DNA of 64,000 bases from Bacilli bacterium (GCA_016283075.1 JAEEMF010000018.1:2445-66444), one strand, 5' to 3'; shown: positions 32,587-63,329, counted from the stretch's first letter. Notes: generated from the sequence alone by a model not told the origin. Made by a program: numbers and translations.

Positions 32587-32609
32587 GAAAAAAAGAAGGA
32601 TTTCCTTCT
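32587..32609 (-). terminator. rho-independent terminator after A2
   Basis: AGAAGGA-TT-TCCTTCT plus T7 on the minus strand. Confidence 0.7.
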
Positions 32610-32611
32610 TT

Positions 32612-38720: not shown

Positions 38721-38788
38721 AAAGTCCCCCAATTTATAAAAGATTTAATATGCGGTTTATTATAATACATTATTAATATTAAGGCAAA

Positions 38789-44354: not shown

Positions 44355-46898
44355 CTACCTATTTTTTATTTCTTCTTGAAGTTTATATAAAGTATTTAAA
44401 GCATCAAGAGGTGTTACTTCAAGTAAGTTTAATTCTTTTATTTTCTCTTCTATCTTGCTTGTAGGAATCATTAATTCATCAAGAGGAAGAGACTCTTGAA
44501 CTTTAATATCTCTTTTTAATTCCTTTGTTTCATATACTTTTAATATATCATCTGCTCTTTTTATTAAAGATGATGGCATTTTAGCAAGTTTTGCTACATA
44601 GATACCATAACTCTTATCTACAGATCCTTCTTTTATTTTATGAAGGAATGTTATATTACCATTTTCTTCATAAGCACTAACATGAATATTTTTAATACCT
44701 TTTAGTTTACCCTCTAAATCAGTAAGTTCATGGTAGTGTGTTGAGAAAAATGTTTTAGCTTTAATATTCTCTTCTATATACTCTATTATTGCTTGAGCAA
44801 GACTCATACCATCAAATGTTGCAGTACCTCTACCTAACTCATCAAATAATATTAAACTATTTTTAGTAGCATTTGTAATAGCATTATTAGCTTCCATCAT
44901 TTCTACCATAAATGTAGATTCTCCAGATACTAAATCGTCACTTGCTCCTATACGAGTAAAGATACTATCAAATATAGGAAGAGTTGCTTCTCTTGCTGGT
45001 ACAAAGCATCCTATTTGAGCCATTATTACAGTAATTGCCATTTGTCTCATATATGTAGATTTACCAGCCATATTAGGACCTGTTATTAAAAGAATATCAG
45101 TATTTTCATCCATAATAATATCATTAGGAACATATTCTCCTTTAGTAACTATTTCTACTACAGCATGTCTATTATCATATATCTTAACTTCTCTTTTATC
45201 AGTTAATACTGGTCTTACATAGTTATTTGCTTCTGTTACAGTAGCAAATGACTGAAGTACATCTATTTCACTAATAACTTTAGATATTTCTTGAAGACGA
45301 GGTATATACTCTTTAATCTTATCTCTTATACCTACAAATAAGTTATATTCTAGTTCTATTATCTTTTCTTCAGCATTTAAGATAAGTGCTTCTTTTTCTT
45401 TTAAAATAGGACTTATATATCTTTCACAGTTTGTAAGAGTTTGTCTTCTTTCATATCCAAATTCATCTTTAATTTGATCTATTTGTCCTTTAGATACTTC
45501 TATATAGTATCCAAATACTTTGTTGTATCCAACTTTTAAAGTCTTTATACCAGTTCTTTCTTTTTCTTCGTTTTCAAACTTAGCAACAAAGTCCTTACCA
45601 CCACGTCTTAATTCTTTTAATTCATCTAACTCTTTATTAAATCCTTCTTTAATTAAGTATCCTTCTTTTAAAGTAATAGGAGGATTTTCATAAATACTCT
45701 CTTCTAAAAGATTATATAAGTCATTAAGTGGTTCAAAGTTTTTATAAAAATTAATTCTCTTTAAAATATCTACTATATCAGGAAGTACTTTTAAAGATGC
45801 TTTAAGTTGTAATAAATCTCTAGCATTTGCTGAACCATATGCAACTCTTCCTGATAATCTTTCTAAATCATATACTTCATATAAATAGTTTTGTAATTCT
45901 TCTTTTAAAATAAATTCTTTTAAAAGAGTTTCTACAGTATCATATCTTCTATTTATTTCTTCCTTATTTATTAATGGATTTTCTATATACTGCTTAAGCA
46001 TTCTAGAACCCATTGCTGTCTTAGTCTTATCAAGAAGCCATATTAAAGAATATGTTCTATCTTTAAGTCTAATTGTTTCAGTAAGCTCTAGATTTCTTTT
46101 AGTATGAATATCCATCTTTAAATAATCTTTACTATCTTTAATAACAGCTTTTTGCATATGAGATAGATTTCTCATTTGTGTTTTAGTTATATATGTAAGT
46201 AATAGCTTAATGGTTTCTATATATCTTACATCTCCTAAATCACTATATACATATTCATATTCTTTATTATCATCTATATCATCAGTAATAGTTACAAGTA
46301 CATTAAACTGATTAGAAAGTAAAGCTTTTACTTCTTTATCTACCTTACTAGTTATAATAACTTCTTTTATATTATGACTTACTACTTCACTAACAATTTT
46401 AGAAATATTATGTTCTACCAAAGTGACATTAATATCTCCTACTGAAATATCACAGTAACAAAGTACATAAGCATGTCCAAAATCCATAATACTTCCAATA
46501 TAATTATTATCTTTCTCGTTTAAACCTTCATTACTAATAATAGTACCCTTACTAATTATTTGTGTTAAATCTCTTTTAACAATTCCTTTAGCATACTTAG
46601 GGTCTTCTAACTGTTCACAAATACCTACTTTATGACCATTTTCTACTAATTTTTCGATATAGATATCTACTGCATGATGAGGAACACCGCACATAGGTAC
46701 TCTATCTTCTAACCCGCAGTTCTTTCCTGTTAAAGTAAGTTCAAGTTCACGAGATGCAAGTATAGCGTCTTCAAAAAACATTTCATAGAAATCTCCTAAT
46801 CTAAACATTACTATAACGTCTGGATTAGCATTTTTTATTTCCATATATTGACGCATACCAGGTGAAACTTTATTTATGTCTACTTCACTATGATTCAT
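44355..46898 (-). CDS. mutS: DNA mismatch repair protein MutS
   Basis: SPGMRQYMEIK N-terminus, Walker A GPNMAGKSTYMRQ, DELGRGTATFDG. The ATG at 46898 has an AGGTGA RBS; the track start at 46907 is GTG. No mutL downstream. Confidence 0.95.
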   Translation of the reverse strand: MNHSEVDINKVSPGMRQYMEIKNANPDVIVMFRLGDFYEMFFEDAILASRELELTLTGKNCGLEDRVPMCGVPHHAVDIYIEKLVENGHKVGICEQLEDPKYAKGIVKRDLTQIISKGTIISNEGLNEKDNNYIGSIMDFGHAYVLCYCDISVGDINVTLVEHNISKIVSEVVSHNIKEVIITSKVDKEVKALLSNQFNVLVTITDDIDDNKEYEYVYSDLGDVRYIETIKLLLTYITKTQMRNLSHMQKAVIKDSKDYLKMDIHTKRNLELTETIRLKDRTYSLIWLLDKTKTAMGSRMLKQYIENPLINKEEINRRYDTVETLLKEFILKEELQNYLYEVYDLERLSGRVAYGSANARDLLQLKASLKVLPDIVDILKRINFYKNFEPLNDLYNLLEESIYENPPITLKEGYLIKEGFNKELDELKELRRGGKDFVAKFENEEKERTGIKTLKVGYNKVFGYYIEVSKGQIDQIKDEFGYERRQTLTNCERYISPILKEKEALILNAEEKIIELEYNLFVGIRDKIKEYIPRLQEISKVISEIDVLQSFATVTEANNYVRPVLTDKREVKIYDNRHAVVEIVTKGEYVPNDIIMDENTDILLITGPNMAGKSTYMRQMAITVIMAQIGCFVPAREATLPIFDSIFTRIGASDDLVSGESTFMVEMMEANNAITNATKNSLILFDELGRGTATFDGMSLAQAIIEYIEENIKAKTFFSTHYHELTDLEGKLKGIKNIHVSAYEENGNITFLHKIKEGSVDKSYGIYVAKLAKMPSSLIKRADDILKVYETKELKRDIKVQESLPLDELMIPTSKIEEKIKELNLLEVTPLDALNTLYKLQEEIKNR

Positions 46899-46953
46899 AT
46901 ATATCACCTAAGTTCATTTTAGCACATTTTTGCTTTTTTTATAAGGGAAAATA

Positions 46954-46977
46954 ACAAAAAAGAGACTTTCGTCTCTT
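46954..46977 (-). terminator. rho-independent terminator ending the glycine-rich gene array
   Basis: AAGAGAC-TTTC-GTCTCTT plus a T-run on the minus strand, abutting the stop at 46977. Confidence 0.7.
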
Positions 46978-48152
46978 TAAACACCTAGAAAAGTAATTTT
47001 TATGGAACCATCGCCTTCTTTAGGGCATTTACTTATTGCATTAACACTATGACCATTGGGACAGGTAGAAGGATTCCCTTCTTCTGGGTTAGTATAAACG
47101 GATATTGTTTTTGTTTGAGTTGCTGAAGAAGAGGTACAATTATAACAGTACATAGCCTTGGTAACGCTTGGTGTAGACATTAATTTTGAAGAAGCGATAT
47201 AGGAAGAACCTCCTCCGCCTCCAGAACCATAGTCATTACCAGAACCTCCTCCATAGAAGCCGCCTCCGCCTCCAGCTCCAGCCCAACCATCATTTGCGAC
47301 ATCACCAGCATCTCCGCCCTTGCCAAAATTGCCTACAAATCCACCTCTTGTATCTTGAGCTAAAGCAGTACCACCAGAAATTTGAGTACCACCTCCGCCT
47401 CCTGTTGCAGGAGGATTTCCACCGCCTGTTTGATTATGACCTTTTGTACCGGAGATACCTCCGCCATCACCTCCATAATGACCAGTTCTCCAGTATCCGG
47501 CTCCTCCGCCACCAGCGGCAACAATTAATATATCATCCGATATATAATAATCAGTATTTAAAATTCCTTTATAAGATTCGAGTGATGCTAATTCACCTTG
47601 GATAAATGAAACGGAAGTAGCTCCTCCACCACCGGCACCGTATCCACCATCATCACTACTATTTAGTTTCCCATATCCACAGGCTTTACCTCCACCATTG
47701 AAACCTCCACCATATGGTGCTTCTAAATAATAACTTGTTATATCTGCCGGTTTACCACCAACATTAACATATAAAACATCATCTTCTTCAAGGCTTACTA
47801 CACCGACAGCATAAGCACCATATCCTCCGGAAGCACCATTAGCACCTCCTCCTTGAGCACCCCATACCTCTATTTGATATAATCCATCGCATCTACTTGT
47901 AAATTTATCACTAATAGTTTCAGTTCTTTCATATACTACGTCACCGGGACGATAAGGACATCCAAACACACACTGTCTAGTTACATCGTATAAATCATCT
48001 AAAGCATCTTTAGTATTATCTACATTCCATTCTGTATCTGTAGGAGTATATCCTACATCACTTGCTATATATGAGTATGCAAAAACAGCGCTTATACTAA
48101 TAAACGATACTAATATCAAGAAAATTATTTTTGATTTAAATATTTTCTTCAC
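46977..48152 (-). CDS. secreted glycine-rich protein, ALK/LTK-GRD-like (Gly_rich) domain (G1, subtype I)
   Basis: GTG start with an AGGAG RBS. Signal peptide ...SAVFA|YSY and N-module YIASDVGYTPTDTEWNVDNTKDALDDLY. Motifs IEVWGAQGGG, VAAGGGG, GGGGGFYGGG, GGGGGSSYI; C-terminus GDGSIKITFLG. Confidence 0.75.
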   Translation of the reverse strand: MKKIFKSKIIFLILVSFISISAVFAYSYIASDVGYTPTDTEWNVDNTKDALDDLYDVTRQCVFGCPYRPGDVVYERTETISDKFTSRCDGLYQIEVWGAQGGGANGASGGYGAYAVGVVSLEEDDVLYVNVGGKPADITSYYLEAPYGGGFNGGGKACGYGKLNSSDDGGYGAGGGGATSVSFIQGELASLESYKGILNTDYYISDDILIVAAGGGGAGYWRTGHYGGDGGGISGTKGHNQTGGGNPPATGGGGGTQISGGTALAQDTRGGFVGNFGKGGDAGDVANDGWAGAGGGGGFYGGGSGNDYGSGGGGGSSYIASSKLMSTPSVTKAMYCYNCTSSSATQTKTISVYTNPEEGNPSTCPNGHSVNAISKCPKEGDGSIKITFLGV

Positions 48153-48167
48153 GCTGCATACTCCTAT

Positions 48168-49349
48168 CTATTCTATCCCTAAATAAGTAATCTTAGCATA
48201 TCCATTTCCAGTATTACCATTCATTGTTGCAGTACTAGCATAGTTTGGCATTCCCGATACTGTTGTAGCTTTAACAGTTGACCAGCTATATCCTGCTCCA
48301 TCTATCATAACAGTATTAGTAAACGATTTACTGCTATAATGTACACTACATCCATCATTAGATGTTGGATTAGTATTACATCCAGATATTTTTATAGCGC
48401 GAGGATTTGAAATTGAATTCTCGGCTATTGCTACACATCCAGCGTGGCCAGATATATATGATGAACCGCCTCCGCCGCCAAATGAGTAACCGCCTTGGCC
48501 ACCACCTCCGCCGTAGTAGCCTCCGCCGCCTCCGCCGCCGCTATACCATCCACTACTTATATCAGAAGCATTTCCACCTATACCAAATATTCCAGGATTA
48601 GTATTACTACAATATCCAGAACCACATCCTGAAGCAGTACCACCTGATATTTGAGTACCACCTGTTGCTAAAGCAAGATTAGCAGATGCTTGTCTTATAT
48701 CTTTAACACCGCTATAACCAGTAAGACCACCAGCAGCACCACCATTACCACTACCACTAGCAGCAGCTTCGCCACCTAATGCTCCGCCTCCACCACCAGC
48801 TACCATTATTCTATCTTCTAAAGCATTTCTCATAAATCGAACATCTGTAGCACCACCACCAGCACCACCTGTTCCTTTATAGGGATTAGTTGAAGTAAAT
48901 GTTTGACCTCCGCCATTATATCCTGCTGCTACTGTTGTTGGTTTTCCGCCGATATAGATATATATAGTTTGTCCTCTATTAAAGCTAATATCACCTTTAA
49001 CATAAGCACCTTTTCCACCAATACCTACTTGACTATCTCCACCTTGGGCTCCCCAAAGTTCTATACGATAATTTCCTTTACAAGGTATATTAAATACTTT
49101 TCCAGTACCTGTATATGTACTTTCAAACACTATGTCATATGCATTATAAGGACAACTAAAATCACAATGAGTTGCTTTATCATATAAGGATTCTAAACCT
49201 TGATCAACATTTTCTACTTCCCATTCATTATCTATAGGAGTAAATCCTATTTCTTCTGCTATATAAGAGTATGCTAAAGCAACACTTGTACTAAAAACAA
49301 GCGCACCAAGTATTACGAAAAATAATTTTGATTTAAAAATATTTTTCAT
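48168..49349 (-). CDS. secreted glycine-rich protein, Gly_rich-like domain (G2, subtype II)
   Basis: Same N-module. Motifs IELWGAQGGD, MVAGGGGG, GGGGGGGYYGGGGG, GGGGGSSYISGHAGCVAI; C-terminus GNGYAKITYLG. Confidence 0.75.
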   Translation of the reverse strand: MKNIFKSKLFFVILGALVFSTSVALAYSYIAEEIGFTPIDNEWEVENVDQGLESLYDKATHCDFSCPYNAYDIVFESTYTGTGKVFNIPCKGNYRIELWGAQGGDSQVGIGGKGAYVKGDISFNRGQTIYIYIGGKPTTVAAGYNGGGQTFTSTNPYKGTGGAGGGATDVRFMRNALEDRIMVAGGGGGALGGEAAASGSGNGGAAGGLTGYSGVKDIRQASANLALATGGTQISGGTASGCGSGYCSNTNPGIFGIGGNASDISSGWYSGGGGGGGYYGGGGGQGGYSFGGGGGSSYISGHAGCVAIAENSISNPRAIKISGCNTNPTSNDGCSVHYSSKSFTNTVMIDGAGYSWSTVKATTVSGMPNYASTATMNGNTGNGYAKITYLGIE

Positions 49350-49372
49350 GTTGCATACTCCTTCTATTTTTA

Positions 49373-50446
49373 TTAATTCTTACCTAAATAAATAATTTTT
49401 ACAGCTCCACTTCCAGATTTAGCACAATTACTAACTGCTATACTGCTATATCCATCAGGACAGTTAACACTATCTTTATTACTTCCTGTTGTTGAAATTG
49501 TTTTAGTAGCCGGTTCACTTGACTCTGTACATCCATAGCAGTACATTACTGCATCATGAAGACCAGAGTTACCGATATATCCGGAACCACCACCTCCACC
49601 AGAGTGAATTCCGCATCCTCCGCCGTAGAAGCCTCCTCCTCCAGATACTCTCATATAAGAGCCATATGAAGAGCTAGCATTACATCCTACACCAAATGTA
49701 GGAGCAGTAAAGCTTGAGTAAGAAGTTGATCCAGAGGTTCCTGCTTCAAGCTGTGTTCCACCAGTACCTGGTTTTCTATCAGTATTATTACTTCCTGTTC
49801 CACTTCCACCAGATGTACCACCACCTGATCCACCAGTACCATTTGTATTACCAGATCCAGAAGCAGAACCACCTCCACCACCAGCAACAATTAAAAGTTT
49901 GTCAGTATTAGAGGCATATTCAAAGAGTAATCCAGTTCCAATTAACTGAGTTGCAATATGAGTAGCTCCTCCTCCAGCTGAGCCTATATATCCGCCAGAC
50001 TGAATACTTGATCTACCTCCACCATTATATCCGCCATTACCAGAAGTACTACCAGATCCACCAACAACCACATAAAGTTTATCAAAACGATTTAATTCAA
50101 CAATACCAACTGAATATCCACCATATCCACCATTATAAGAATCACTAGCATCACCACCTGATGCACCCCATGCTTCTATCTTATAATGACCAAAATAAGG
50201 TGCAACAAATTCAACAACATCGCCTGAAGGTCCATATCTCCAGTCATGATTAATATAGTCACTATAAGTACCTATTTCTCCATATAAATAATCAAGTGCC
50301 TCTTTGGTATTTTCTACATCCCAGTCATCTTCTTCTGGAGTAAATCCTACTTCTTGTGCCAAATAAGAGTATGCTAAAACACTTAGTGCTAAACCTAAGC
50401 AAATACCAACTATAAGTATTGTTAAATCTCTTAAGCGTTTTTTCAT
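49373..50446 (-). CDS. secreted glycine-rich protein, Gly_rich-like domain (G3, subtype I)
   Basis: Motifs IEAWGASGGD, IVAGGGGG, GGGGFYGGG, GGGGGSGYIG, MYCYGCTESS; C-terminus GSGAVKIIYLG. Confidence 0.75.
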   Translation of the reverse strand: MKKRLRDLTILIVGICLGLALSVLAYSYLAQEVGFTPEEDDWDVENTKEALDYLYGEIGTYSDYINHDWRYGPSGDVVEFVAPYFGHYKIEAWGASGGDASDSYNGGYGGYSVGIVELNRFDKLYVVVGGSGSTSGNGGYNGGGRSSIQSGGYIGSAGGGATHIATQLIGTGLLFEYASNTDKLLIVAGGGGGSASGSGNTNGTGGSGGGTSGGSGTGSNNTDRKPGTGGTQLEAGTSGSTSYSSFTAPTFGVGCNASSSYGSYMRVSGGGGFYGGGCGIHSGGGGGSGYIGNSGLHDAVMYCYGCTESSEPATKTISTTGSNKDSVNCPDGYSSIAVSNCAKSGSGAVKIIYLGKN

Positions 50447-50462
50447 ACTTTATTCCTTTCTA
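50344..50462 (-). repeat. near-identical about 119-bp 5' segment shared with 51641..51759 (RBS plus first about 34 codons of G3 and G4)
   Basis: By-eye alignment shows only about 6 mismatches, whereas the rest of G3 and G4 belong to different subtypes. Confidence 0.8.
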
Positions 50463-51743
50463 CTGTCTGCCAAGATAAGTTATTCTTGCATATCCATCTC
50501 CTGTGTTACCTGTCATTGATGATAATGAACTATGACTTGGCATTCCTGTTACAGTTGATGCTTTAGCAGAAGTCCATTCATAGCCTTTTCCATCAACCAT
50601 TTTTGTATTCGTAAAATATAATCCACTATAATGAATACTACATTCATCACTTGATGTTGGATTAGATGAACATGACGATATTTTAACTTCACGTGGTTCA
50701 CTAGTTGAACCACTTTTTATTGCTACACAACCAGAGTGACCTGATATAAAAGAAGAACCTCCTCCGGCTGCTTTCCAAACACCGGCTCCTCCACCGTAAT
50801 AGCCTCCGCCTCCGCCACCTTGAGAGATGTCAGATCTAGAAGGATTTGTTATTGTAGCACCTTTACCAAATTTACCTGGATAAGTATTAGTAAGGCTAGT
50901 ACTTTGCCAGTCATGTACACTAGTACCACCAGAACTTTGCCCTCCTGATATTTGAGTACCACCTGTTGGAGTTACAGTTGAGAATCCTCCAGTACTAGCT
51001 ACATAAGCGGCGTAAGCGGTTAATCCTCCAGCTGATCCTCCGTCAATTATTGAATAGTTGCTAGCAGTAGCATAATTTTGATGCATACCACCGCCTCCTC
51101 CAGCAACCATAATTCTAGAGTTTAGTCCTATATCTGAATCCCAAGCAAGTTGTCCTGATGTTGGAGTAGTACCAAAATATCTAATATCGGTAGCACCTCC
51201 ACCACTTGATATTTGTCTATAATATCCAGCACTTTCTCTTAAATATCCATCGGCGCCACCATTGTAACCACCTGTTGCAGTTCCAACACCAGCCGAATAT
51301 CTTTGAACACCTTTTCCACCTACAAAAACATATAATTTTATTGTTGGGTCTAATGATATTTCACCTTTGGTATAACCACCTTTACCACCTACAGCATTAC
51401 CGTTTAAACCGTCATTTGATAAATCTTCTCCATCTCCTCCGGATGCTCCCCATAGTTCAATTCTATAGTCACCATCACAAGGTGGTTCAAATAAATCTCC
51501 AAATCCTAAATAACCACTTTCATAAACTACATCTCCTGGAACATATCTACAACTAAAATCACATGATTTAGCTACATCGCGAAGATCATCTATTGCATCT
51601 TTTGTATTATCTACATTCCATTCTGTATCAGTAGGAGAATATCCTACTTCTTGAGCTAAATAAGAGTATGCTAAAACACTTAGAGTTAAACCTAAGCAAA
51701 TACCAACTATAAATATTGTTAAATCTCTTAAGCGTTTTTTCAT
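50460..51743 (-). CDS. secreted glycine-rich protein, Gly_rich-like domain (G4, subtype II)
   Basis: Motifs IELWGASGGD, MVAGGGGG, GGGGGGYYGGG, GGGSSFISGHSGCVAI; C-terminus GDGYARITYLG. Confidence 0.75.
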   Translation of the reverse strand: MKKRLRDLTIFIVGICLGLTLSVLAYSYLAQEVGYSPTDTEWNVDNTKDAIDDLRDVAKSCDFSCRYVPGDVVYESGYLGFGDLFEPPCDGDYRIELWGASGGDGEDLSNDGLNGNAVGGKGGYTKGEISLDPTIKLYVFVGGKGVQRYSAGVGTATGGYNGGADGYLRESAGYYRQISSGGGATDIRYFGTTPTSGQLAWDSDIGLNSRIMVAGGGGGMHQNYATASNYSIIDGGSAGGLTAYAAYVASTGGFSTVTPTGGTQISGGQSSGGTSVHDWQSTSLTNTYPGKFGKGATITNPSRSDISQGGGGGGYYGGGAGVWKAAGGGSSFISGHSGCVAIKSGSTSEPREVKISSCSSNPTSSDECSIHYSGLYFTNTKMVDGKGYEWTSAKASTVTGMPSHSSLSSMTGNTGDGYARITYLGRQ

Positions 51744-51759
51744 ACTTTATTCCTTTCTA
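51641..51759 (-). repeat. partner copy of repeat 50344..50462
   Basis: Same alignment: ...ATCCTACTTCTTG..AAATAAGAGTATGCTAAAACACTTAG...CTCTTAAGCGTTTTTTCATACTTTATTCCTTTCTA. Confidence 0.8.
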
Positions 51760-52272
51760 TTAGTTAAAATTATTTTTCACAAAATTCAAGTGAGACCATA
51801 CCCCAGTATTATTTCCTGTAGCTCTAATTGTAATTGATACTTGCTGACCTTTTTCTAAATTTATAATTGTATTTTCAATAAATCCCCAAGTATTTACACT
51901 TCTATTTGTATGGTTAACACCATCTACTTTAATAGTCCAAGATGAACTAGCCATAGCTGAACCAGCAGCTCTAACCCCATAACTAATAATAATAGTTCCT
52001 TTTGTTGTTGCTGTATATGAGGCAGAACATGATGGATTATTTTGACTAGCTCCATAAAAACATCCACCAACTGTTTTTATCTCAACGTTCTCATTAGCTA
52101 TTCTATATAAATCATCTAAAGCTTCTTTTGAATCTTCGACATCCCACTCCAAGTCAGTAGGAGTAAACCCAACATCCTGTGCAAAATAAGAGTATGCAAA
52201 AACAGCACTTATACTACATACAAGTACTCCAAGCATAAAGAAAAACAATCTACTTCTAAATATTTTCTTCAT
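51760..52272 (-). CDS. secreted protein with the array's shared N-module but a non-glycine-rich beta-rich C-domain
   Basis: MKKIFRSRLFFFMLGVLVCSISAVFA|YSYFAQDVGFTPTDLEWDVEDSKEALDDLY, followed by an about 110-aa domain without Gly runs. By homology with its neighbours, the second ATG (52272) is the start. Confidence 0.7.
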   Translation of the reverse strand: MKKIFRSRLFFFMLGVLVCSISAVFAYSYFAQDVGFTPTDLEWDVEDSKEALDDLYRIANENVEIKTVGGCFYGASQNNPSCSASYTATTKGTIIISYGVRAAGSAMASSSWTIKVDGVNHTNRSVNTWGFIENTIINLEKGQQVSITIRATGNNTGVWSHLNFVKNNFN

Positions 52273-52290
52273 ACGCATACTCTTTTCTAT

Positions 52291-53448
52291 TTATTCACCT
52301 AAATAGGTTATTCTTGCATATCCAGCACCGCTTTTAGCACACATGCTTACTGGACTATTACTATATCCACTTGAACAGTTACTATTTCTTTCATCTTCGT
52401 GTGTTGTTATTCCATATGTTGATACTGTATAAGTTGATAAATCACTACTTTCAGTGCAGTTATAACAGTACATTTTATTTACTATATTATTTGCTTCATT
52501 TTGTATAAGACGGTTACTTCCTATATAACCAGATCCTCCACCTGCTCCAAGTCCACTAGATGAGTACCCACCGTAGAAGCCTCCGCCTCCGCCAGCTTCA
52601 CCATAGTAGTTCATCCATCCGCCTTGACCAAATGTTCCAGCATTAAAGTATGAACCTGTTCTTGTATCTGCAACTTGTAATCCACCATATCCGCCGGCAG
52701 GGCTATAGGTTCCGCAAGATCCTTTATTATAGTCGTAAGCGTCTACTCCGTTTACGCCTCCGCCGTGTCCGCCAGAACCATAACACACATATCTATTGCT
52801 ATTGTTGTAGTAACCGGAGCCTCCACCACCACCAGCAACAATTAGTAGTTTTCCTGTACTAACATGTGCTGATAGGTTTTTAAGTTCTCCGGAAACTAAA
52901 GCAAAACTAGTTGCTCCTCCACCAGAACCATAACATTCACCATTTGCACCACTTCCGTCAGATGCTCTACCTTTACCACCGCCATTATATCCTCCATCAA
53001 CTGGGGTATTATTTTTAGTAGCAGTAAGTCCTTGCCCTCCAACATTTACATAAATAGAGGTCCCTTCTTCTATCTCCATAGTTCCTGTAGAATATCCACC
53101 ATATCCTCCTGGTTTAGAAGCACAGTCAGAGTCTCCTCCTTGTGCTCCCCAGGCTTCTAGTTTATAAGTTCCTGTACATTCCGGATTAAATACTTGCTGA
53201 GCACCAGTACTTCCTCCTTCAAAAACGATATCACCATTAGAATAAGGACATGTTACTCTACAACCACTTGTTATATCATTTAAATCATTTAAAGCCTGAC
53301 TTACATTTTGAACGTTCCACTCAGTATCATTTGATGTAAATCCTAAATTTATAGATGCATAATCATATGCTAAAACGGCACTTATCATACTAAACATAAG
53401 TGCTCCAAGAATAAAGAAAAATATTCTCGATTTTAGCATTTTTTTCAT
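52291..53448 (-). CDS. secreted glycine-rich protein, Gly_rich-like domain (G5, subtype I)
   Basis: Motifs LEAWGAQGGD, IVAGGGGG, GGGGGFYGGY, GAGGGSGYIG, MYCYNCTESS; C-terminus GAGYARITYLG. Confidence 0.75.
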   Translation of the reverse strand: MKKMLKSRIFFFILGALMFSMISAVLAYDYASINLGFTSNDTEWNVQNVSQALNDLNDITSGCRVTCPYSNGDIVFEGGSTGAQQVFNPECTGTYKLEAWGAQGGDSDCASKPGGYGGYSTGTMEIEEGTSIYVNVGGQGLTATKNNTPVDGGYNGGGKGRASDGSGANGECYGSGGGATSFALVSGELKNLSAHVSTGKLLIVAGGGGGSGYYNNSNRYVCYGSGGHGGGVNGVDAYDYNKGSCGTYSPAGGYGGLQVADTRTGSYFNAGTFGQGGWMNYYGEAGGGGGFYGGYSSSGLGAGGGSGYIGSNRLIQNEANNIVNKMYCYNCTESSDLSTYTVSTYGITTHEDERNSNCSSGYSNSPVSMCAKSGAGYARITYLGE

Positions 53449-53461
53449 ATGCATATCCTTT

Positions 53462-54622
53462 CTAATTTAAAGAAGTATAGGTAATACGAATATAACCATT
53501 ACCTGCTTTAGCGCATCCACTTATAGGAAATGAATCATATCCACTAGTACAGCTTTCATTTCTTTCAGCAGTATGAGTACTTGTTCCATGCGTTGAAACT
53601 GTGTATGTTCTAAGTTCACTACTTTCTAGGCAGTCATAACAAAACATTTTATTTAATATGTTATTACTAATATTTTGAACAAGAAGCTGACTTCCAATAT
53701 ACCCAGAACCACCACCTGATCCTAAAGCTCCAGATGAGTATCCGCCGTAAAAGCCTCCGCCTCCGCCAGACTGTCCAAAGTTATCTAGCCATCCACCTTG
53801 TCCAAAAGAACCAGGTCCCATATAAGTAGCAGTCCTAGTATCAGCAACCTGCATTCCACCATATCCACCAGATGATGCTACAGCGTTACAACTATTTTTA
53901 GCCCAGTCATAAGCGTCTACTCCGTTTACTCCTCCGCCGTGTCCGCCAGATCCATAACATCTATATGAGCCCATAGAATGGTAGTAGGAAGATCCTCCGC
54001 CACCACCAGCTACAACTAATATTTTTCCATCTTCTATATGTTCGGATAATGTATTTAAAGTACCAGAATTTAAGGCTACTGAAGTAGCACCTCCTCCTGA
54101 TCCAGAACACTCACCTTGTGAACCTAGACCATCAGAAATTCTACCTTTACCACCACCATTATATCCGCCATCTACTGGACTATTATTATTAGTAGCAGTA
54201 TTTCCTTTTCCACCAACATTTATAAATAAAGGAGTTCCTACATTTATATTGGCATATACTACTGAATATCCTCCATATCCACCTGGTCTTGAATCACAAG
54301 ATGCATCTCCACCTTGCGCACCCCATACTTCAATTTTATATGTTCCACTACACAGAGGAGTAAAGGTGTCTTGCTCTCCTATATAGTTTGAAGTATATAC
54401 TACTGAATCATGTTCATAAGGGCATCCAAATTCACATGTATTAGTTACACTGTATAAATCATCTAAGGCTTCAGTTACATTTTCAACTGGCCACTCTTCG
54501 TCATCAGGAGTAAAGCTAAAACTAGACGATACATAATCATATGCTAAAACAGCACTTATACTACCAAAAATAAGTGCTCCAAGGACAAAGAAAAAAGTTC
54601 TTGATTCTAGCATTTTCCTCAT
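53462..54622 (-). CDS. secreted glycine-rich protein, Gly_rich-like domain (G6, subtype I)
   Basis: Start MRKMLESRTFFF at 54622 has an AGGGAG RBS; the track start at 54682 is an extension. Motifs IEVWGAQGGD, VVAGGGGG, GGGGGFYGGY, GSGGGSGYIG; C-terminus GNGYIRITY. Confidence 0.75.
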   Translation of the reverse strand: MRKMLESRTFFFVLGALIFGSISAVLAYDYVSSSFSFTPDDEEWPVENVTEALDDLYSVTNTCEFGCPYEHDSVVYTSNYIGEQDTFTPLCSGTYKIEVWGAQGGDASCDSRPGGYGGYSVVYANINVGTPLFINVGGKGNTATNNNSPVDGGYNGGGKGRISDGLGSQGECSGSGGGATSVALNSGTLNTLSEHIEDGKILVVAGGGGGSSYYHSMGSYRCYGSGGHGGGVNGVDAYDWAKNSCNAVASSGGYGGMQVADTRTATYMGPGSFGQGGWLDNFGQSGGGGGFYGGYSSGALGSGGGSGYIGSQLLVQNISNNILNKMFCYDCLESSELRTYTVSTHGTSTHTAERNESCTSGYDSFPISGCAKAGNGYIRITYTSLN

Positions 54623-54670
54623 AAGCCTACACTCCCTATTGTATATATTAATTATATCATATAAATCCAT

Positions 54671-54700
54671 AACAAAAAACATATAGTTGACTATATGTTT
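54671..54700 (-). terminator. terminator-like hairpin in the leader of the glycine-rich array
   Basis: AAACATATAG-TTGA-CTATATGTTT (10-bp arms) followed by TTTGTT on the minus strand, about 50 nt upstream of the G6 start. Confidence 0.45.
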
Positions 54701-54759
54701 TACTATTTAATCAAATATATTCCATATCCTTGTATTATATATAAATAATATTTTAGTCA

Positions 54760-54786
54760 ATAAAAAGGCGAGTTATATCTCGCCTT
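54760..54786 (-). terminator. rho-independent terminator after the GNAT gene
   Basis: AAGGCGAG-TTATAT-CTCGCCTT spanning the stop codon, with a T-run on the minus strand. Confidence 0.65.
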
Positions 54787-55264
54787 TAAATGTCATATGA
54801 TAATCATCTTCATGCTTACCTGGACCATCTATTACAAATCCTACTTTTTCATAACAATGAATTGCTCTAGGATTAAAGTTAAATACATTTAAATGAAAGC
54901 CTTTAATACCTTTATCATGTCCATATTTAAGTATAGCTTTAATAGACTCTGTACCATATCCTTTATCTTGTTTATCACTTGTTATACATATACCAAGTTC
55001 TGCTATATCAGTAGGTTCTTTAAGTTCAATACTTCCTATAAATTCATTAGTACCCTTTTCTATCATAGAAAATATCATATTGTTATTACTATTTATTTTA
55101 ATCCATTCTTTCTCATCATCATAAGAATACTCTCTTATATTATGAGTAATATATTTTTGTACATCAAAATCATTAACCATTTTTAGATAGTCATCTATTA
55201 ATAAATCAGTTAGCTTTATATAGTAGATTCTATCTGATTCAAATATTATATCGTATTTATCCAT
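54773..55264 (-). CDS. GNAT family N-acetyltransferase (RimJ/RimL-like)
   Basis: Pattern IGSIELKEP..IAELGICITSDKQDKGYGTESIKAILKYGHD; Acetyltransf_3-like. Confidence 0.75.
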   Translation of the reverse strand: MDKYDIIFESDRIYYIKLTDLLIDDYLKMVNDFDVQKYITHNIREYSYDDEKEWIKINSNNNMIFSMIEKGTNEFIGSIELKEPTDIAELGICITSDKQDKGYGTESIKAILKYGHDKGIKGFHLNVFNFNPRAIHCYEKVGFVIDGPGKHEDDYHMTFKGEI

Positions 55265-58160: not shown

Positions 58161-59165
58161 TTATTTGTCAACTATTTTATAATTTTCTAAAGCAGTTACT
58201 GCTTCATCAAATGTTTTAACAGGTATTATATCTATATCAAGTTTATATTTTCTTTTTACTTTTACAGCTTCATCATAGTTTTCACCATAAGGTACTAAAA
58301 ATATTCCTGCTTTAGATTTAGCAGCACCTAATATTTTATATTTAACTCCTCCTATTTCACCTACTGAGCCATCTTCATAAATAGCACCAGTACCTGCAAT
58401 AGTAAGGCCTTTTGTAATATCTTCTTTAATAAGTTTATTATAAATTGTTAAAGCATTTATAAGACCACCAGAAGATCCTGATTCATTATTTTTAAAATCA
58501 AATTCACATTTAGGATTAGTTTCATACTTAATAACATCTATAGAAAGTATTCCTATTTTAGGTTTACCTTCATAGTCTATAAGTGTTGCTGTTCTAGTTA
58601 GTTTTTTAGTGCCACTTATTACTTCATAAGTAACTTTATCTCCTATTTTATAAGTAGCCATTAAATTACTTAGTTCTTCAGAAGAACCTATTTTTACACC
58701 ATTTGCTGATTTAATAATATCTCCTATTTCAAAATCTGATTTAGTATCCTTATATACAAAACCTACTACAGCATCTTTAGAAGCTACTTTAACTTCTAAA
58801 CCAGCTTTTTCATAAGCTACTTTAACAGCATACTTATTACCAGCTTTTAAAAGTACTTTACCAAGTCCTATTTCTTCATCTTGAGTTATTCCCCCATTAT
58901 CTTCAGGTTTTACTATATCCCACTTGCTATTTATTAAGGCATATAAGTAAAAGATAGGAGTAGCTCTTAGTTGTGACACATAAGTCATATTAAATGTTCC
59001 TTTACTACTATACTCATTTTCTATAGTAATACGCTCTGTTGTATCAATCATTCTTCCTGGAGCTTCTATGTAACAAGGTAAACTATATGTTGAAATAAAT
59101 ATTGTTACTAAAATGGTAATTATATATAACCAGTTTTCTTTTAAAACTCTTTTAAGTTTTTTCAT
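58161..59165 (-). CDS. YlbL/SepM-type membrane serine protease (PDZ + Lon-like S16 domain)
   Basis: TM anchor, PDZ-like GDIIKSANGVKI, Lon-like ESGSSGGLINALTIYNKL...TGAIYEDGSVGEIGGVKYKILGAAKSKAGIFLVP. Start MKKLKRVLKEN at 59165. Confidence 0.8.
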   Translation of the reverse strand: MKKLKRVLKENWLYIITILVTIFISTYSLPCYIEAPGRMIDTTERITIENEYSSKGTFNMTYVSQLRATPIFYLYALINSKWDIVKPEDNGGITQDEEIGLGKVLLKAGNKYAVKVAYEKAGLEVKVASKDAVVGFVYKDTKSDFEIGDIIKSANGVKIGSSEELSNLMATYKIGDKVTYEVISGTKKLTRTATLIDYEGKPKIGILSIDVIKYETNPKCEFDFKNNESGSSGGLINALTIYNKLIKEDITKGLTIAGTGAIYEDGSVGEIGGVKYKILGAAKSKAGIFLVPYGENYDEAVKVKRKYKLDIDIIPVKTFDEAVTALENYKIVDK

Positions 59166-59186
59166 TATATCACCACTTTCATTATA

Positions 59187-59212
59187 ACAAAAAAGTGGAG
59201 TTACCTCCACTT
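59187..59212 (-). terminator. rho-independent terminator after the pilin gene pair
   Basis: AAGTGGAG-TTAC-CTCCACTT plus a T-run on the minus strand. Confidence 0.7.
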
Positions 59213-59214
59213 TC

Positions 59215-60837
59215 TTAACCAAATTTAACACTTCTTAAAGATATTTTTACATATCCATTTCCATCATGACCTATTTCATATGTTGAATGGTCAGGACTTA
59301 TAAATGTTTTTGTTCCATCAAATAATTCACAACTTGCGTTAGCGCAGTAACCAGAGCCTCCTCCGCCACCTCCGTAGCGAGAACCACCTCCGCCGCCATA
59401 GTAGCCGCCTCCACCGCCACCAGCTGCGTACGTTACTCCATCACTTGTTGTATAAGATGCACCACTACCTCCTTGAAGAAGAGCACCTGCTGTTGGAAGT
59501 GATGTAATAGTTCCTGATGAAGTAGTTGTATATGTTGCTGCTGCACCACCAGATGAGCTTGTTCCAGCTCCTCCTAAATAGCTATCAGAAGAACATGTTC
59601 CAGTAGTACCAGAAGCGCCTCCTCCAGCACCACCATTACAAGTAAAGGATGAGTCATTACGAGATCCACCTCCACCGCCTCCTCCAGCGACAATTATTCT
59701 AGAGTTAACGGCTGATGAACCAAGCCTAACATCACTTGCTCCTCCACCTGATGAAGCTAAATAGGTAGACGAAGTTCCACTATTTCCTCCTCCGTTATAT
59801 CCGCCTATAGCAGCAGTTCCTACAGTACCAGTTACACCTTGTCCTCCAACTGTTACATATAGTTTATCAGAAGTAGATAATGCCATAAAATCTTTAGCAT
59901 ATCCACCTTTACCTCTCATCATTGAAGAGCCTCCACCTGATGCTCCCCATACTTCTATTTCATAAGTACCACTTACTGGTACATTAAACTGTTCTACTTT
60001 TCCTGAGAAGGAATAATTATAAACAGATTCAATTACTTTAACAGTTCTTGATACTTGTGACATTACTTCATTATTTATATTATAAATTGTATAAGTAAGT
60101 GTATATTCTTCTCCAGCTGTATTACCTACATAACCAGTTACATTTACAAGTGGATTATCACTTTTTAAATCAACTTCACTTGTTATAATATCACCTGATT
60201 TAGAATCTACTACATAATATCCTGGATCAACATAATCTACATCAACGTATTTAAAGTCATCTCCACCTATTAAGTATAGTCTTTTTTCAGAATCTACTAT
60301 ATCTGTTAAATTAACATTTGCTACGGTAACAGCCTTACTATTATATTGATATACTACATTAAATCCAAAGTTTTCTTGTTCAAATAAAGTATGATAAATT
60401 GGTACTTCTACATTAAAAATACTATTTTTCTTACTCTTTTCTCCATTAGTATCAAGTATTTTTTCATAGTATACTGCTACATTACCAAAAGTACTTCCGG
60501 ATAGTAAGTTAGTAGCAATACCATCATATTCAATAAATTTACCTTTACGATCTACAATTAACTTCTTAGTCTTTTCACTACTAGATTCTTTATAAATAAA
60601 GTTAACACATATATCGTAACCAGTACATCTTTCAATTTTAGTTATATCTAAATTTAATAAATCATCATTTATATTTTTAGCAAGTATAGCTTGTTTAGTA
60701 AGTAATTTAGTTTTAATACCATTTTCAATATATAGATTTCTTACAACAATAATTATTTCAGTTAAAAGAAGTACTATAACTGTTGTAAGTGATACAGTAA
60801 TAAGTAATTCTACTACAGTAAATCCATTCTTTTTCAT
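59215..60837 (-). CDS. modular type IV pilin-like protein: prepilin N-terminus + Ig-like (DUF5011-like) domain + ALK/LTK-GRD-like glycine-rich domain
   Basis: MKKNG|FTVVELLITVSLTTVIVLLL class III signal. RLYLIGGDDFKYVDVDYVDPGYYVVDSKSGDIITSEV...GEEYTLTYTIYN...RTVKV fits the DUF5011 pattern. Gly-rich motifs are YEIEVWGASGGG, IVAGGGGGGG, GGGGGGYYGGGGG; C-terminus GNGYVKISL. Confidence 0.75.
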   Translation of the reverse strand: MKKNGFTVVELLITVSLTTVIVLLLTEIIIVVRNLYIENGIKTKLLTKQAILAKNINDDLLNLDITKIERCTGYDICVNFIYKESSSEKTKKLIVDRKGKFIEYDGIATNLLSGSTFGNVAVYYEKILDTNGEKSKKNSIFNVEVPIYHTLFEQENFGFNVVYQYNSKAVTVANVNLTDIVDSEKRLYLIGGDDFKYVDVDYVDPGYYVVDSKSGDIITSEVDLKSDNPLVNVTGYVGNTAGEEYTLTYTIYNINNEVMSQVSRTVKVIESVYNYSFSGKVEQFNVPVSGTYEIEVWGASGGGSSMMRGKGGYAKDFMALSTSDKLYVTVGGQGVTGTVGTAAIGGYNGGGNSGTSSTYLASSGGGASDVRLGSSAVNSRIIVAGGGGGGGSRNDSSFTCNGGAGGGASGTTGTCSSDSYLGGAGTSSSGGAAATYTTTSSGTITSLPTAGALLQGGSGASYTTSDGVTYAAGGGGGGYYGGGGGSRYGGGGGGSGYCANASCELFDGTKTFISPDHSTYEIGHDGNGYVKISLRSVKFG

Positions 60838-60838
60838 A

Positions 60839-61810
60839 TTAATGAACCTCCCTATAGTAAAGGTTTGTTTCTCTTTGAGAATCAGTAAGTGTTACTGTAT
60901 CTTCTTCAGCATCTATAAACATATATCCTGATACATTTTTACGATACTGTTCTGTATAAATAGTATTACCACAGAAGTTACTTATAAAAGTATCAGGTGC
61001 TACTTCTACTTCAGTATTTTCTATATAATGATGTATTATTAAACTTGATTCTTTTCTTTGATAAATAATACTTGCTTGATTATCTCCGCCATTTACTAAA
61101 GTAAAGTCTTCTTTAGTAAATCCGGATAAGTAATAACACTTATTATCACTTCTAGCATACATTTCCGTATATACTTTAGAACCACATGTATCTCTACCAT
61201 TATTTGGTTCATAAAGTTCAGTACCACTTGCTTGTTCAGCAGATGAATTAACACCTACATGATGTATTGTAAATGGAATAATATTTGTAACATTACATGA
61301 ATCAGCAAGTATAAATAAGAATCTATATCCATTAAGTACTTTTATACTTGAGTATGATCCATCATCAAATGATGCTATTAATCTATAGCCATCACTTTTA
61401 TCATAATTAATCTTTCTTATGTATTTATTAAAATCTTCACCTAAATCATTATTTTCTATTAAAGGAAATAAGTTTTCATTAGTAATAATAACTTTTTTAA
61501 TACCTAGTTTTTTAAATAATATTTCACAATAATCAAGTGAATCAAAGTATAAATTAGGGCAAGAAGTTAAGTCTATATAATCATTAGTTTTTAAGTATTC
61601 AGCCATTGCAGAATAGTTACTTGTTTCAACATATTTTTTAACATTATATAAGTTGTAAGAAGCACCTATTGCATTGTAAGAATAGCTTTCACTAAAGTTT
61701 GTATTAACATTTTTAAACTCAATATATAAGATAAGTAAGACACTTACAAGCATAGTTGCAACGATAAGTGTTTCCGTTAAAATAAACCCTTTTCTATTCA
61801 ATTTTTTCAT
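60839..61810 (-). CDS. type IV pilin-like protein with two C-terminal MucBP-like repeats
   Basis: MKKLNRKG|FILTETLIVATMLVSVLLILY class III signal. The C-terminal halves FTIHHVGV...YYLSGFTKEDFTLV...SIIYQRK and LIIHHYIEN...SGYMFIDAEEDTVTLT...NLYYRE resemble MucBP units. A 1-nt gap separates it from the next pilin gene. Confidence 0.6.
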   Translation of the reverse strand: MKKLNRKGFILTETLIVATMLVSVLLILYIEFKNVNTNFSESYSYNAIGASYNLYNVKKYVETSNYSAMAEYLKTNDYIDLTSCPNLYFDSLDYCEILFKKLGIKKVIITNENLFPLIENNDLGEDFNKYIRKINYDKSDGYRLIASFDDGSYSSIKVLNGYRFLFILADSCNVTNIIPFTIHHVGVNSSAEQASGTELYEPNNGRDTCGSKVYTEMYARSDNKCYYLSGFTKEDFTLVNGGDNQASIIYQRKESSLIIHHYIENTEVEVAPDTFISNFCGNTIYTEQYRKNVSGYMFIDAEEDTVTLTDSQRETNLYYREVH

Positions 61811-61898
61811 AAAACTTACCCTTTCGTATTGTTTTTATCCTAGAACTATTATATAATATAACTAGAATAAAAGTCTAGTCTAAAAGAGGATAAAGGGG

Positions 61899-63329
61899 AT
61901 GAATTTTTTTATGTTGCGAACATTTGATTTCGAAAAAATACCTATAGTAGAAATCGTTAACGATATATTACTTGACTCTGCAAAACGTGGCGCAAGTGAT
62001 ATTCACTTCGACCCTCAAGATGAAAATATGAAGGTAAGAATTCGTATCGATGGTTCACTTCAAAACTACTGTGAAGTTCCAAATTCTATTAAAAAGAATT
62101 TAACAACTCGTATAAAAATTATAGCTGGTATGAATATAACAGAATCAAGATTACCTCAAGATGGTGCTATCAAAACACAAATACAAGATACTGACCTAGA
62201 TCTCCGTGTTTCGGTACTTCCTATTAGTACAGGTGAAAAGATCGTTATCCGTATCCTTGACTATACAAAGAGTTTAAGTGGACTAGAACAATTAGATTTT
62301 AGTGAAGCAAATTATAAAAAATTATTATATATGATTGGTGTACCAAATGGTATTATCCTAGTAACCGGAGCTACTGGTTCTGGTAAATCTACAACAGTAT
62401 ACTCTATTCTTCAAAGATTAAATAAAGAAGATACAAACCTAATTACTGTAGAAGATCCAGTCGAAATGGATATAGCTGGTATTAACCAAGTTCAAGTTAA
62501 TAGTGAAATAGGACTTACATTTGCAGCAGCACTTCGTTCTATCTTACGTCAGGACCCTAACATTATAATGATCGGAGAAATTCGTGATACTGAAACTGCA
62601 AAGATAGCTGTTCGTGCTTCTATTACTGGACACTTAGTATTATCAACAATCCACACCAATAGTGCTTTAAATACTATTGAACGTTTACTAGATATGGATG
62701 TTGAAAGATACTTACTATCAAGTGCCTTAACTGGTATGATATCTCAAAAACTTGCTAGAAGACTATGTCCTCACTGCAAGAAGTTAAGACCAACTAATGA
62801 ATACGAAAAGAAATTATTTAAGAAAACACTTAATATGGATATAAATGAAGTTTATACAGCTGTTGGATGCGACAAATGTACAAATGGGTATACGGGACGT
62901 ATGGCAATACATGAAGTACTTGTTATTAATCAGGAAATTCGTGATGCTATATCTGCTAATACACCAAAAGAAAAACTTCGTGAATTAGTTTATAGTGGTG
63001 ATACTAAATCAATGCTTCAGGATGGTCTTGAAAAAGTTATTCAAGGACATTCAACTATTGAGGAAATCCTAAAACTAATCGAACTTGAAGATGACGATTC
63101 ATTAAGTGATGATGAAGATTTAAGAAAAGTACTTGAAAAATCTACAGCAGAAGTAAATGCTAGACCTCCAGTACAACAAGGTGTGCCTGCTGCTCAACCA
63201 CAAGTTATGCAGCAACCTACTCCAAATCCTGCTGGATTTACTCCAGGACCTGCGCTTAATCAAGCACCAGCTCCTACCCCAGCACCACAACCTGGTATAG
63301 CAGATTTACTTAATAAAGTACAACAATAA
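61899..63329 (+). CDS. type IV filament assembly ATPase (GspE/PilB/ComGA family) with Pro/Gln-rich C-terminal tail
   Basis: Walker A GATGSGKSTT, Asp box ITVEDPVE, Walker B NIIMIGEIRD, His box GHLVLSTIHTN, tetra-Cys CPHC...CDKC. The last 56 aa are low-complexity P/Q/A. Confidence 0.88.
   Translation: MNFFMLRTFDFEKIPIVEIVNDILLDSAKRGASDIHFDPQDENMKVRIRIDGSLQNYCEVPNSIKKNLTTRIKIIAGMNITESRLPQDGAIKTQIQDTDLDLRVSVLPISTGEKIVIRILDYTKSLSGLEQLDFSEANYKKLLYMIGVPNGIILVTGATGSGKSTTVYSILQRLNKEDTNLITVEDPVEMDIAGINQVQVNSEIGLTFAAALRSILRQDPNIIMIGEIRDTETAKIAVRASITGHLVLSTIHTNSALNTIERLLDMDVERYLLSSALTGMISQKLARRLCPHCKKLRPTNEYEKKLFKKTLNMDINEVYTAVGCDKCTNGYTGRMAIHEVLVINQEIRDAISANTPKEKLRELVYSGDTKSMLQDGLEKVIQGHSTIEEILKLIELEDDDSLSDDEDLRKVLEKSTAEVNARPPVQQGVPAAQPQVMQQPTPNPAGFTPGPALNQAPAPTPAPQPGIADLLNKVQQ

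Follow-up and report, generated by a model that had tools for sequence, protein, structure and literature searches.

The ALK/LTK glycine-rich fold has so far been studied only in animal receptors and in one cyanophage fibre. ALK-family structures described in the literature contain 10-14 polyglycine-II helices, and the glycine-rich domain of ALK binds the peptide activators of this receptor. The cyanophage protein, gp24 of Pam3 (PDB 7YPX), is described as consisting of a long and a short helix at the N-terminus, followed by a TNF-like domain and then a glycine-rich domain with 12 such motifs; it resembles the ectodomain of the C. elegans ALK homolog SCD-2 (7LIR), and recognises its host receptor via distal loop tips, which are variable and sit on a conserved glycine stem (PMC9608196). 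No characterised bacterial member of the glycine-rich family was found in the literature, in agreement with an earlier note on the DNA analysed here. We studied a stretch of 64,000 nucleotides (hereafter the window) from an uncultured gut bacterium of low GC (~27%), Bacilli bacterium (GCA_016283075.1 JAEEMF010000018.1:2445-66444), in which an array of seven genes, G1 to G7, encodes a common N-terminal leader and, in six cases, this domain.

We read the array as an operon of Sec-exported, probably surface-held ligand-binding proteins, in which a common leader carries interchangeable heads, and we consider this reading rather probable. Calling of open reading frames (ORFs) returned n=7 co-oriented minus-strand ORFs spanning 46977-54622, exactly where the earlier note had placed them. 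The genes are listed below in the order of transcription; percentages for orthologs refer to protein identity with a second strain, described later, and HMM stands for hidden Markov model.

G1, 53462-54622, minus strand: 386 amino acids (aa); leader and TNF-like/glycine-rich domain of subtype I (CxxC...C...C tail); PF12810 E 4e-35; leader HMM 103 bits
G2, 52291-53454, minus strand: 387 aa; subtype I; PF12810 E 1e-32; 63% identity with G1; ortholog 95%
G3, 51760-52278, minus strand: 172 aa; leader and CBM-like beta-sandwich (by model), no glycine-rich domain; missing from the second strain
G4, 50460-51743, minus strand: 427 aa; subtype II (SGHxGCVAI...HYSG...GMP insertion); PF12810 E 1e-42; ortholog 93%
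G5, 49373-50446, minus strand: 357 aa; subtype I; PF12810 E 3e-31; ortholog 95%
G6, 48168-49349, minus strand: 393 aa; subtype II; PF12810 E 1e-42; the protein used for the AlphaFold model; ortholog 93%
G7, 46977-48152, minus strand: 391 aa; subtype I; GTG start; PF12810 E 7e-32; three other leader-bearing genes in its place in the second strain

Comparison with Pfam revealed that six of the seven proteins match PF12810, the ALK/LTK glycine-rich domain, at E 1e-31 to 1e-43 (109.6-147.3 bits), over model positions 5-8 to 242-243 of 243. The gathering cutoff of PF12810 is 24.5 bits; scores of 110-147 bits therefore exclude chance, thereby confirming the family membership that had been proposed by eye, a check set beforehand. 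The glycine-rich motif series quoted in the earlier note was visible in an alignment of the same six genes. G3 gave no PF12810 match in the Pfam scan, and an NCBIfam scan found no model for the array proteins. The heads are 37-63% identical in sequence (identity matrix), with 8-13 glycine-rich segments per glycine-rich paralog. A single-sequence phmmer search of PDB sequences gave nothing significant, only a chance match at E 0.87; a profile of 50 homologs retrieved 7LIR at E 2e-10.

The AlphaFold model of G6, built on a homolog alignment, had a mean predicted local distance difference test (pLDDT) of 85.7 and a predicted template modelling score (pTM) of 0.81. It showed an N-terminal long helix, then a short helix and ~11 beta-strands, and its glycine-rich stretches were confident (pLDDT mostly >90) and neither helix nor strand. 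When this model was compared with the PDB by Foldseek (best 50 matches listed, of 153 with E <= 10), the top 21 matches were all ALK/LTK ligand-binding (TG) domains, with probability 1.0 and E 1e-8 to 2e-5. The best match outside ALK/LTK, at rank 22, was the Pam3 tail fibre (7ypx_A), a weak one with E 0.015, probability 0.60 and template modelling (TM) scores of 0.20/0.28. Thus, in the model, the array domain has the TG supradomain fold, a TNF-like beta-sandwich with a glycine-rich subdomain, despite low TM-scores. The earlier note had expected a polyglycine-II lattice in such a model; the relationship to ALK/LTK came out clearly, and the modelled glycine segments of G6 are consistent with a polyglycine-II geometry.

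Two subtypes differ at the C-terminus: subtype I comprises G1, G2, G5 and G7, with a CxxC...C...C tail, and subtype II comprises G4 and G6, with an SGHxGC...HYSG...GMP insertion, and is the common form across other gut Bacilli. Along the array they follow each other as I, I, short, II, I, II, I; the alternation reported earlier is confined to the second half of the array. In a neighbour-joining tree, drawn without bootstrap, the subtypes formed two deep groups, each interleaving with proteins of other genomes; the paralogs are therefore old and not products of a recent duplication burst. The subtype II segment S-S-Y-I-S-G-H-x-G-C (G6 residues 296-304) was invariant or nearly so among 50 homologs. 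The conserved His and Cys, lying inside an otherwise variable insertion, could form a metal site or an active site. Near-invariant S-x-x-S-G-H-x-G-C and conserved HYSG, F-x-N-T and G-M-P in these 50 homologs, with Ser, His and Cys being typical of catalytic or metal-binding residues, would suit the idea that at least the subtype II proteins are enzymes in which the glycine lattice merely scaffolds a catalytic insertion. We consider this extremely improbable. No enzyme family was matched in Pfam or NCBIfam, enzyme structures appeared only from E 0.56 with probability <=0.28 among the Foldseek matches listed, and subtype I, which lacks these motifs, retains the rest of the fold.

The feature common to all seven array proteins is the first ~60 residues, as seen in an alignment and with a leader HMM. 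This leader consists of a basic, Lys/Arg-rich n-region, a hydrophobic core of 17-19 residues and V/A-x-A ahead of a conserved YSY, for example MKKIFKSK-IIFLILVSFISISAVFA followed by YSY, with small residues at -3 and -1 as read from the sequence. The signal is followed by a motif of ~35 residues, YSY.A.DVGFTP.D.EW.V.N..ALDDLY. The earlier note had called the proteins secreted; every one of them has the basic n-region, the core and the V/A-x-A, which supports a predicted export via a Sec-type signal or anchor.

G3 resembles the family only over the leader (residues 3-64, hhalign). Hence, the earlier description of seven paralogs stands for six genes through the glycine-rich domain, and for G3 in the leader alone. 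The idea that G3 might be the TNF-like core without the glycine loops was rejected, as hhalign aligned nothing but the leader. The remaining 108 residues of G3 were modelled by AlphaFold as an 8-strand beta-sandwich (domain pLDDT 77-91), the closest folds of which in Foldseek were CBM6, CBM35, CBM61, a phage fibre carbohydrate-binding domain and haemagglutinin heads. A weak Pfam match to CBM_35 (E 0.0025) agreed with this fold.

The leader proved to be widespread. Its profile, searched against 1.84 billion representative proteins, gave 1,622 matches at E <= 1e-3 and 528 at E <= 1e-10, almost all at residues 1-60 in proteins of 150-530 aa. A Pfam scan of 129 leader carriers identified as cargo the glycine-rich domain (12), F5/8 type C discoidin (4), NedA-like galactose-binding (2), and one each of Listeria-Bacteroides repeat, ConA-like, H-type lectin and DUF6273; the rest gave no Pfam match, and the leader itself matches no Pfam family. 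A word-indexed search with the leader profile returned 17 short fragments only and was uninformative on cargo.

Gene content was compared with locus L161, which comes from another metagenome, belongs to the same species and was found by exact-protein look-up of P0002. The flanks are nearly identical in the two strains (MutS 99.6%, NusB 99.2%, a 127-aa ORF 98.4%). The order in the second strain is G1 (cut by the contig end), G2 (95%), G4 (93%), G5 (95%), G6 (93%), e276, two subtype I genes and mutS, with G3 absent from the array. The position of G7 is occupied by e276, f377 and g364, which are only 20-43% identical to G7: e276 is a 276-aa leader-bearing protein without the glycine-rich domain, and the two subtype I genes are only 41-43% identical to G7. 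The variable repertoire envisaged in the earlier note is thus observed as differing gene content in a near-identical strain, and the adhesin or decoy role attached to it there stays conjectural.

The shared genes also diverge faster than their surroundings. Between the two strains, the non-synonymous rate (dN) was 0.028-0.043 in array genes against 0.003-0.007 in flanking genes, i.e. 8-10x higher, the synonymous rate (dS) was 0.24-0.38 against 0.05-0.13, and dN/dS was 0.09-0.17 against 0.03-0.13. Thus, the shared array genes evolve faster than the flanks, yet under purifying selection, with no positive selection at the level of whole genes. Over the ribosome-binding site and the part coding for the signal peptide, G5 (50288-50462) and G4 (51585-51759) share 87% DNA identity (repeat D8), the G4 and G5 heads are only 43% identical in protein, and the G4 ortholog in the second strain has a signal peptide different from that of G4 in the window. 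The similarity of the 5' ends and the differing signal of the ortholog indicate that the 5' end underwent gene conversion within the array in recent times.

These observations can be assembled as follows. The Sec-type signal would be cleaved before YSY, or else kept as a type-II-like membrane anchor, and the ~35-residue motif would probably serve as a stalk, an oligomerisation element or an attachment element. The head would be, in six genes, a TNF-like beta-sandwich in the loops of which the glycine-rich segments are arranged as a lattice, with the two C-terminal insertion subtypes, and in G3 a CBM-like beta-sandwich. By analogy with ALK/LTK, where the domain captures a ligand, and Pam3 gp24, where it recognises the host receptor, the heads would be ligand-binding modules, with the glycine lattice as a rigid scaffold and specificity in variable loops or insertions. 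We infer binding because both of these relatives bind, because the leader carries lectin-type heads, and because the domain also occurs on pilins and very large surface proteins. The ligands would most likely be glycans or gut surface structures, since the same leader bears lectin-type heads elsewhere. The repertoire would shift by gain, loss and replacement of whole genes at a fixed site beside mutS, together with gene conversion of the leader.

Several points weigh against this reading. Export, location and binding of the bacterial members are predictions from sequences and models. The ligand of ALK is a protein, and a glycan ligand is suggested only by the other cargo of the leader. Global TM-scores of the G6 model to solved ALK/LTK structures were only 0.30-0.44, the root-mean-square deviation being >10 A (Foldseek). 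The AlphaFold helix runs unbroken through the putative cleavage site in the G6 and G3 models, so that the models do not separate a cleaved from a membrane-anchored form. The G3 model is moderate (pLDDT 68) and its fold matches reflect a generic jelly-roll shape. Finally, the shared genes show no trace of arms-race selection, their dN/dS being well below 1.

The pattern of replacement bears on a further explanation, in which the proteins are structural or protective parts of the envelope (a glycine-rich coat, an S-layer-like layer, or decoys for phage or host factors) and not specific adhesins. Strain-level replacement is typical of surface antigens under phage or immune pressure, seven co-transcribed genes could yield an abundant product, and a glycine content of 19-22% suggests a rigid lattice. 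However, in both characterised relatives the fold serves specific recognition, and proteins sharing the leader bear lectin-type heads. In addition, Pfam and NCBIfam matched no self-assembly or wall-anchoring domain (SLH, LysM, LPXTG-sorting, choline-binding) in the array proteins. We therefore regard an envelope role of this kind as improbable.

The leader and the domain both lead to phages as well. P0249 (478 aa), one of the matches of the leader profile, lacks a signal peptide and contains three internal copies of the leader motif, e.g. VGFTPTDTTWAVTDVAGALDDL, each preceded by an NPH-x-V motif. Among PHROG families it matches those of tail, minor-tail and tail-collar-fibre proteins; what follows the signal in the leader is thus shared with a phage fibre repeat. 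When the 36-residue leader motif was compared with phages by tblastn, the only matches had E = 1, to an unannotated Vibrio phage ORF, and this lead was dropped. The domain itself is present in PHROG families 7388, 5811 and 1589 (function unknown) and in many predicted viral structures. Foldseek matched the G6 model to viral and phage protein models at TM 0.5-0.59, some of them annotated as virion structural proteins. The name 'receptor protein-tyrosine kinase' on viral homologs is automatic and a domain-transfer artefact.

The array might consist of phage-derived receptor-binding proteins still serving a prophage, tailocin or phage-like particle, as the domain in phage proteins, the solved Pam3 tail fibre and the repeats in the tail-fibre-like P0249 would allow. 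The locus itself makes this very improbable. The flanks are genes for a GNAT acetyltransferase, an ABC transporter, mutS, nusB and xseA, and other annotated genes are cell-division, cell-wall and pilin genes; no phage gene was found among the annotated genes of the window, several ORFs being without a Pfam match. All array proteins have the Sec-type hydrophobic N-terminus, which is absent from proteins of particles assembled in the cytoplasm, G+C at third codon positions (GC3) is native, the site beside mutS is kept in the second strain, and no tail-fibre chaperone gene follows the array, unlike gp25 in Pam3. A tblastn search of G6 against 50,697 phage genomes gave no match, for which low-complexity masking is probably part of the reason.

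A bolder form of the favoured reading, that of exported proteins with interchangeable binding heads, draws on the same parallels. The array would be one instance of a hitherto undescribed cellular counterpart of phage receptor-binding proteins in gut Bacilli: a family of ~1,600 clusters in which a Sec signal or anchor and a tail-fibre shaft motif form a probably oligomeric surface stalk. The stalk would carry interchangeable lectin-like heads (TNF-like/glycine-lattice, discoidin, ConA-like, H-lectin, CBM-like), and whole heads would be exchanged from strain to strain at fixed chromosomal sites in the way that phages exchange fibre tips. Such heads would determine, strain by strain, which host or microbial glycans are attached to, or would serve as decoys for phages. 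We offer this as a speculative proposal, more doubtful than probable.

The signals around the genes were examined for the extent of the transcription unit.

Upstream terminator hairpin, 54764-54787, minus strand: -13.5 kcal/mol, z -5.5, then UUUUUAUU; ends the preceding GNAT acetyltransferase gene and forms the 5' boundary of the array unit
Promoter-like element 1, 54732-54760, minus strand: TTGACT, then TATAAT (15 nt spacer) or TAATAC (17 nt); consensus match alone
Promoter-like element 2, 54651-54659, minus strand: extended -10 (TGaTATAAT), ~30 nt 5' of the G1 start; consensus match alone
Downstream intrinsic terminator, 46945-46978 (hairpin 46959-46978), minus strand: -9.7 kcal/mol, z -2.0; overlaps the G7 stop codon, then a U-run; terminator scan and fold

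Both terminators folded as hairpins with U-runs, as the earlier note had it, and the stop codon of the GNAT gene (54773-54775) falls in the loop of the upstream one. Both promoter-like elements lie between the upstream terminator and G1. A purine-rich ribosome-binding site is present 6-12 nt 5' of each of G1-G7. With the starts of the longest ORFs, the intergenic gaps from G1 to G7 are 7, 12, 16, 13, 23 and 15 nt; the spacing of 12-23 nt given earlier is thus right for five gaps, and the G1/G2 gap of 7 nt becomes 13 nt if the second ATG is the start of G2. The longest ORF of G1 begins 60 nt further 5', at 54682, where there is no ribosome-binding site; the AGGGAG ribosome-binding site and the leader alignment support 54622 as the probable start. 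Exact-protein look-ups with G2 and G3 returned zero records, the probable reason being different start codons chosen by gene callers. These sequence signals confirm the predicted arrangement of the seven genes as one operon bounded by hairpin terminators.

The array has a G+C of 0.39 against 0.27. Its GC3 of 0.13-0.19 is that of the flanking genes (0.12-0.19), and the raised G+C is therefore due to glycine codons. Horizontal transfer as the source of the raised G+C was rejected, GC3 being native. No inverted repeats (>=20 nt) were found in 46800-54900, and an invertible promoter is therefore not indicated for the array or its surroundings.

An eighth gene of the family lies in the window, 4.6 kb upstream of the array and beyond the extent given in the earlier note, and belongs to a small pilus-related cluster at 58161-63329 (ATPase, pilin-like gene, pilin fusion and PDZ/Lon_C protease). 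In the prepilin sequences below, a slash stands within the N-terminal motif.

PDZ and Lon_C serine protease, 58161-59231: overlaps the pilin fusion by 17 nt
Eighth glycine-rich paralog, 59215-60837, minus strand: 540 aa; type IV prepilin N-terminus MKKNG/FTVVE; PF12810 E 3e-32, 112.9 bits, residues 289-534; family HMM match
Pilin-like gene, 60839-61810, minus strand: RKG/FILTE; directly upstream of the pilin-fused paralog; translation and prepilin motif scan
PilB/GspE-type secretion ATPase, 61899-63329, plus strand: Pfam T2SSE E 2e-126; divergent from the two pilin genes

Three tandem paralogs (733, 697 and 695 aa) at 12418-18890 on the minus strand join a prepilin N-terminus (KGFTLIELL; Pfam N_methyl) to BspA-type leucine-rich repeats (LRR), and are a putative second tandem family of binding modules, mounted on pilins. 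The prepilin motif (Gly, then Phe/Met-Thr-Leu-x-Glu; N_methyl) was seen in 59215-60837, in 60839-61810 and in the three LRR fusions, and was absent from G1-G7 by Pfam and motif scan. The array proteins could be accessory or tip subunits carried by the type IV pilus whose genes lie nearby, which is presumably where the pilin-fused paralog sits. The fusion, the second pilin and the PilB-type ATPase 4.6-9 kb upstream of the array fit such a role, at least 13 of the 120 best homologs bear prepilin signals, and the three pilin-LRR fusion genes indicate that the organism does mount binding modules on pilins. Nevertheless, 0/7 array proteins have the Gly-Phe-Thr-Leu-x-Glu prepilin cleavage motif, the array leader is a different, separately conserved family, and arrays elsewhere are unlinked to pilus genes, only 3/125 neighbours of homologs being pilin-like. 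A pilus location is, in our judgement, quite improbable.

Elsewhere in the window, genes for proteins with a BacA/UppP, a MurG-type (glycosyltransferase family 28) or a MurB domain and for FtsQ, FtsA and FtsZ lie at 6373-12407 (minus strand) and a PASTA-domain protein at 819-2717. From these cell-wall and division genes it follows that the organism is walled and makes peptidoglycan, which bears on the retention of exported proteins. Two tandem pairs of large ORFs (998 and 1059 aa; 985 and 1060 aa), overlapping slightly within each pair, at 26369-38732 on the minus strand look like a duplicated two-gene module, judged from their arrangement. The first pair (26369-32519) gave no Pfam match at E <= 1e-5, and all four ORFs are without a visible hydrophobic N-terminus.

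Homologs of the glycine-rich proteins are abundant in metagenome-assembled genomes of gut Bacilli, 'Tenericutes' and Mycoplasmatota from ruminants, rabbits, mice and humans. Apart from the prepilin signals given above, the best 120 carried this leader in 24 cases, another hydrophobic N-terminus in 65 and none in 17, many of the last looking like fragments. One homolog (P0108) is named 'glycine rich domain-containing protein' by NCBI. Related tandem arrays were found at L079 (9 genes), L027 (5), L082 and L162. That of L079 (934-15514 on a 1.04 Mb contig of Bacilli bacterium RGIG7548) comprises nine consecutive co-oriented genes for glycine-rich-domain proteins of 405-760 aa; it is larger than the array in the window and lacks the leader found there. 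In some genomes the domain is part of proteins of 2,000-4,200 aa, and in six other gut Bacilli (L016, L037, L043, L053, L055, L076) the ORFs that contain it are very large, at 3,800-4,200 aa. Listeria-Bacteroides repeats (Flg_new), which are frequent on surface proteins, are present in some homologs. A search of metagenome contigs with G7 for orthologous arrays gave nothing with >40% identity over the full length. In 79 loci no conserved partner (chaperone, sortase, secretion system or phage gene) was found beside homologs; the 125 neighbours represent 188 Pfam families, with <=5 sharing any one, and are unrelated housekeeping genes.

The domain family itself is already known. Three aspects appear to be new: the combination of this leader with a TG domain in one protein, a large and so far unannotated leader family that has a fibre-like motif and carries lectin-type cargo, and the strain-level gene turnover at a fixed site beside mutS. 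From the locus, a role can be proposed for the bacterial members: in uncultured gut Bacilli they would be binding heads that are exported and interchangeable. The locus also provides handles for their study, namely the leader family, the two insertion subtypes, the pilin-fused paralog in the window and two strains differing in gene content. If the heads do bind, the proteins would mark strain-level differences in niche or phage interaction in a poorly known gut lineage, and, being small and of a single domain, would be available as glycine-lattice scaffolds to structural work and protein design.

Among the known systems, the TG supradomain of ALK/LTK (PDB 7NX1, 7NX4, 7LRZ, 7N00, 7LIR) is homologous to the array domain by profile and by predicted fold. 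Both have a beta-sandwich with glycine-rich loops in an extended lattice (in the array, by model), and both are extracytoplasmic (in the array, as predicted); the domain binds ligand in ALK/LTK and would do so in the array by analogy. Unlike the receptors, the array proteins have no kinase, MAM, LDLa or EGF modules, and Pfam finds PF12810 alone in proteins of 357-427 aa. They are small, with an N-terminal signal or anchor and two bacterial C-terminal insertion subtypes, and superpose poorly (TM 0.30-0.44).

Pam3 gp24 shows the same domain order as the array proteins (helices, TNF-like, glycine-rich) with a weak structural match. It is a trimer assembled in the cytoplasm on the phage baseplate and needs the chaperone gp25, whereas the array lies among chromosomal housekeeping genes, is without a chaperone gene and encodes proteins with a hydrophobic Sec-type N-terminus. 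The earlier note had pointed instead to gp38 of Salmonella phage S16 (PDB 6F45) as the phage parallel. The array domain and gp38 share a design principle, a glycine-rich bundle of polyproline-II type under variable receptor-binding loops. However, 6F45 was not among the listed 50 best of the 153 PDB matches with E <= 10, and gp38 joins its bundle to a beta-helix and not to a TNF-like sandwich; it is an analogue from a different family, and Pam3 gp24 is the closer one (PMC9608196). Type IV pilin fusions and tandem variable gut adhesins are similar to the array in being multi-copy, tandem and strain-variable, and in the binding modules borne on pilins in the window itself. In contrast to them, the array proteins carry their own unannotated leader in place of a prepilin signal, LPXTG motif or lipobox.

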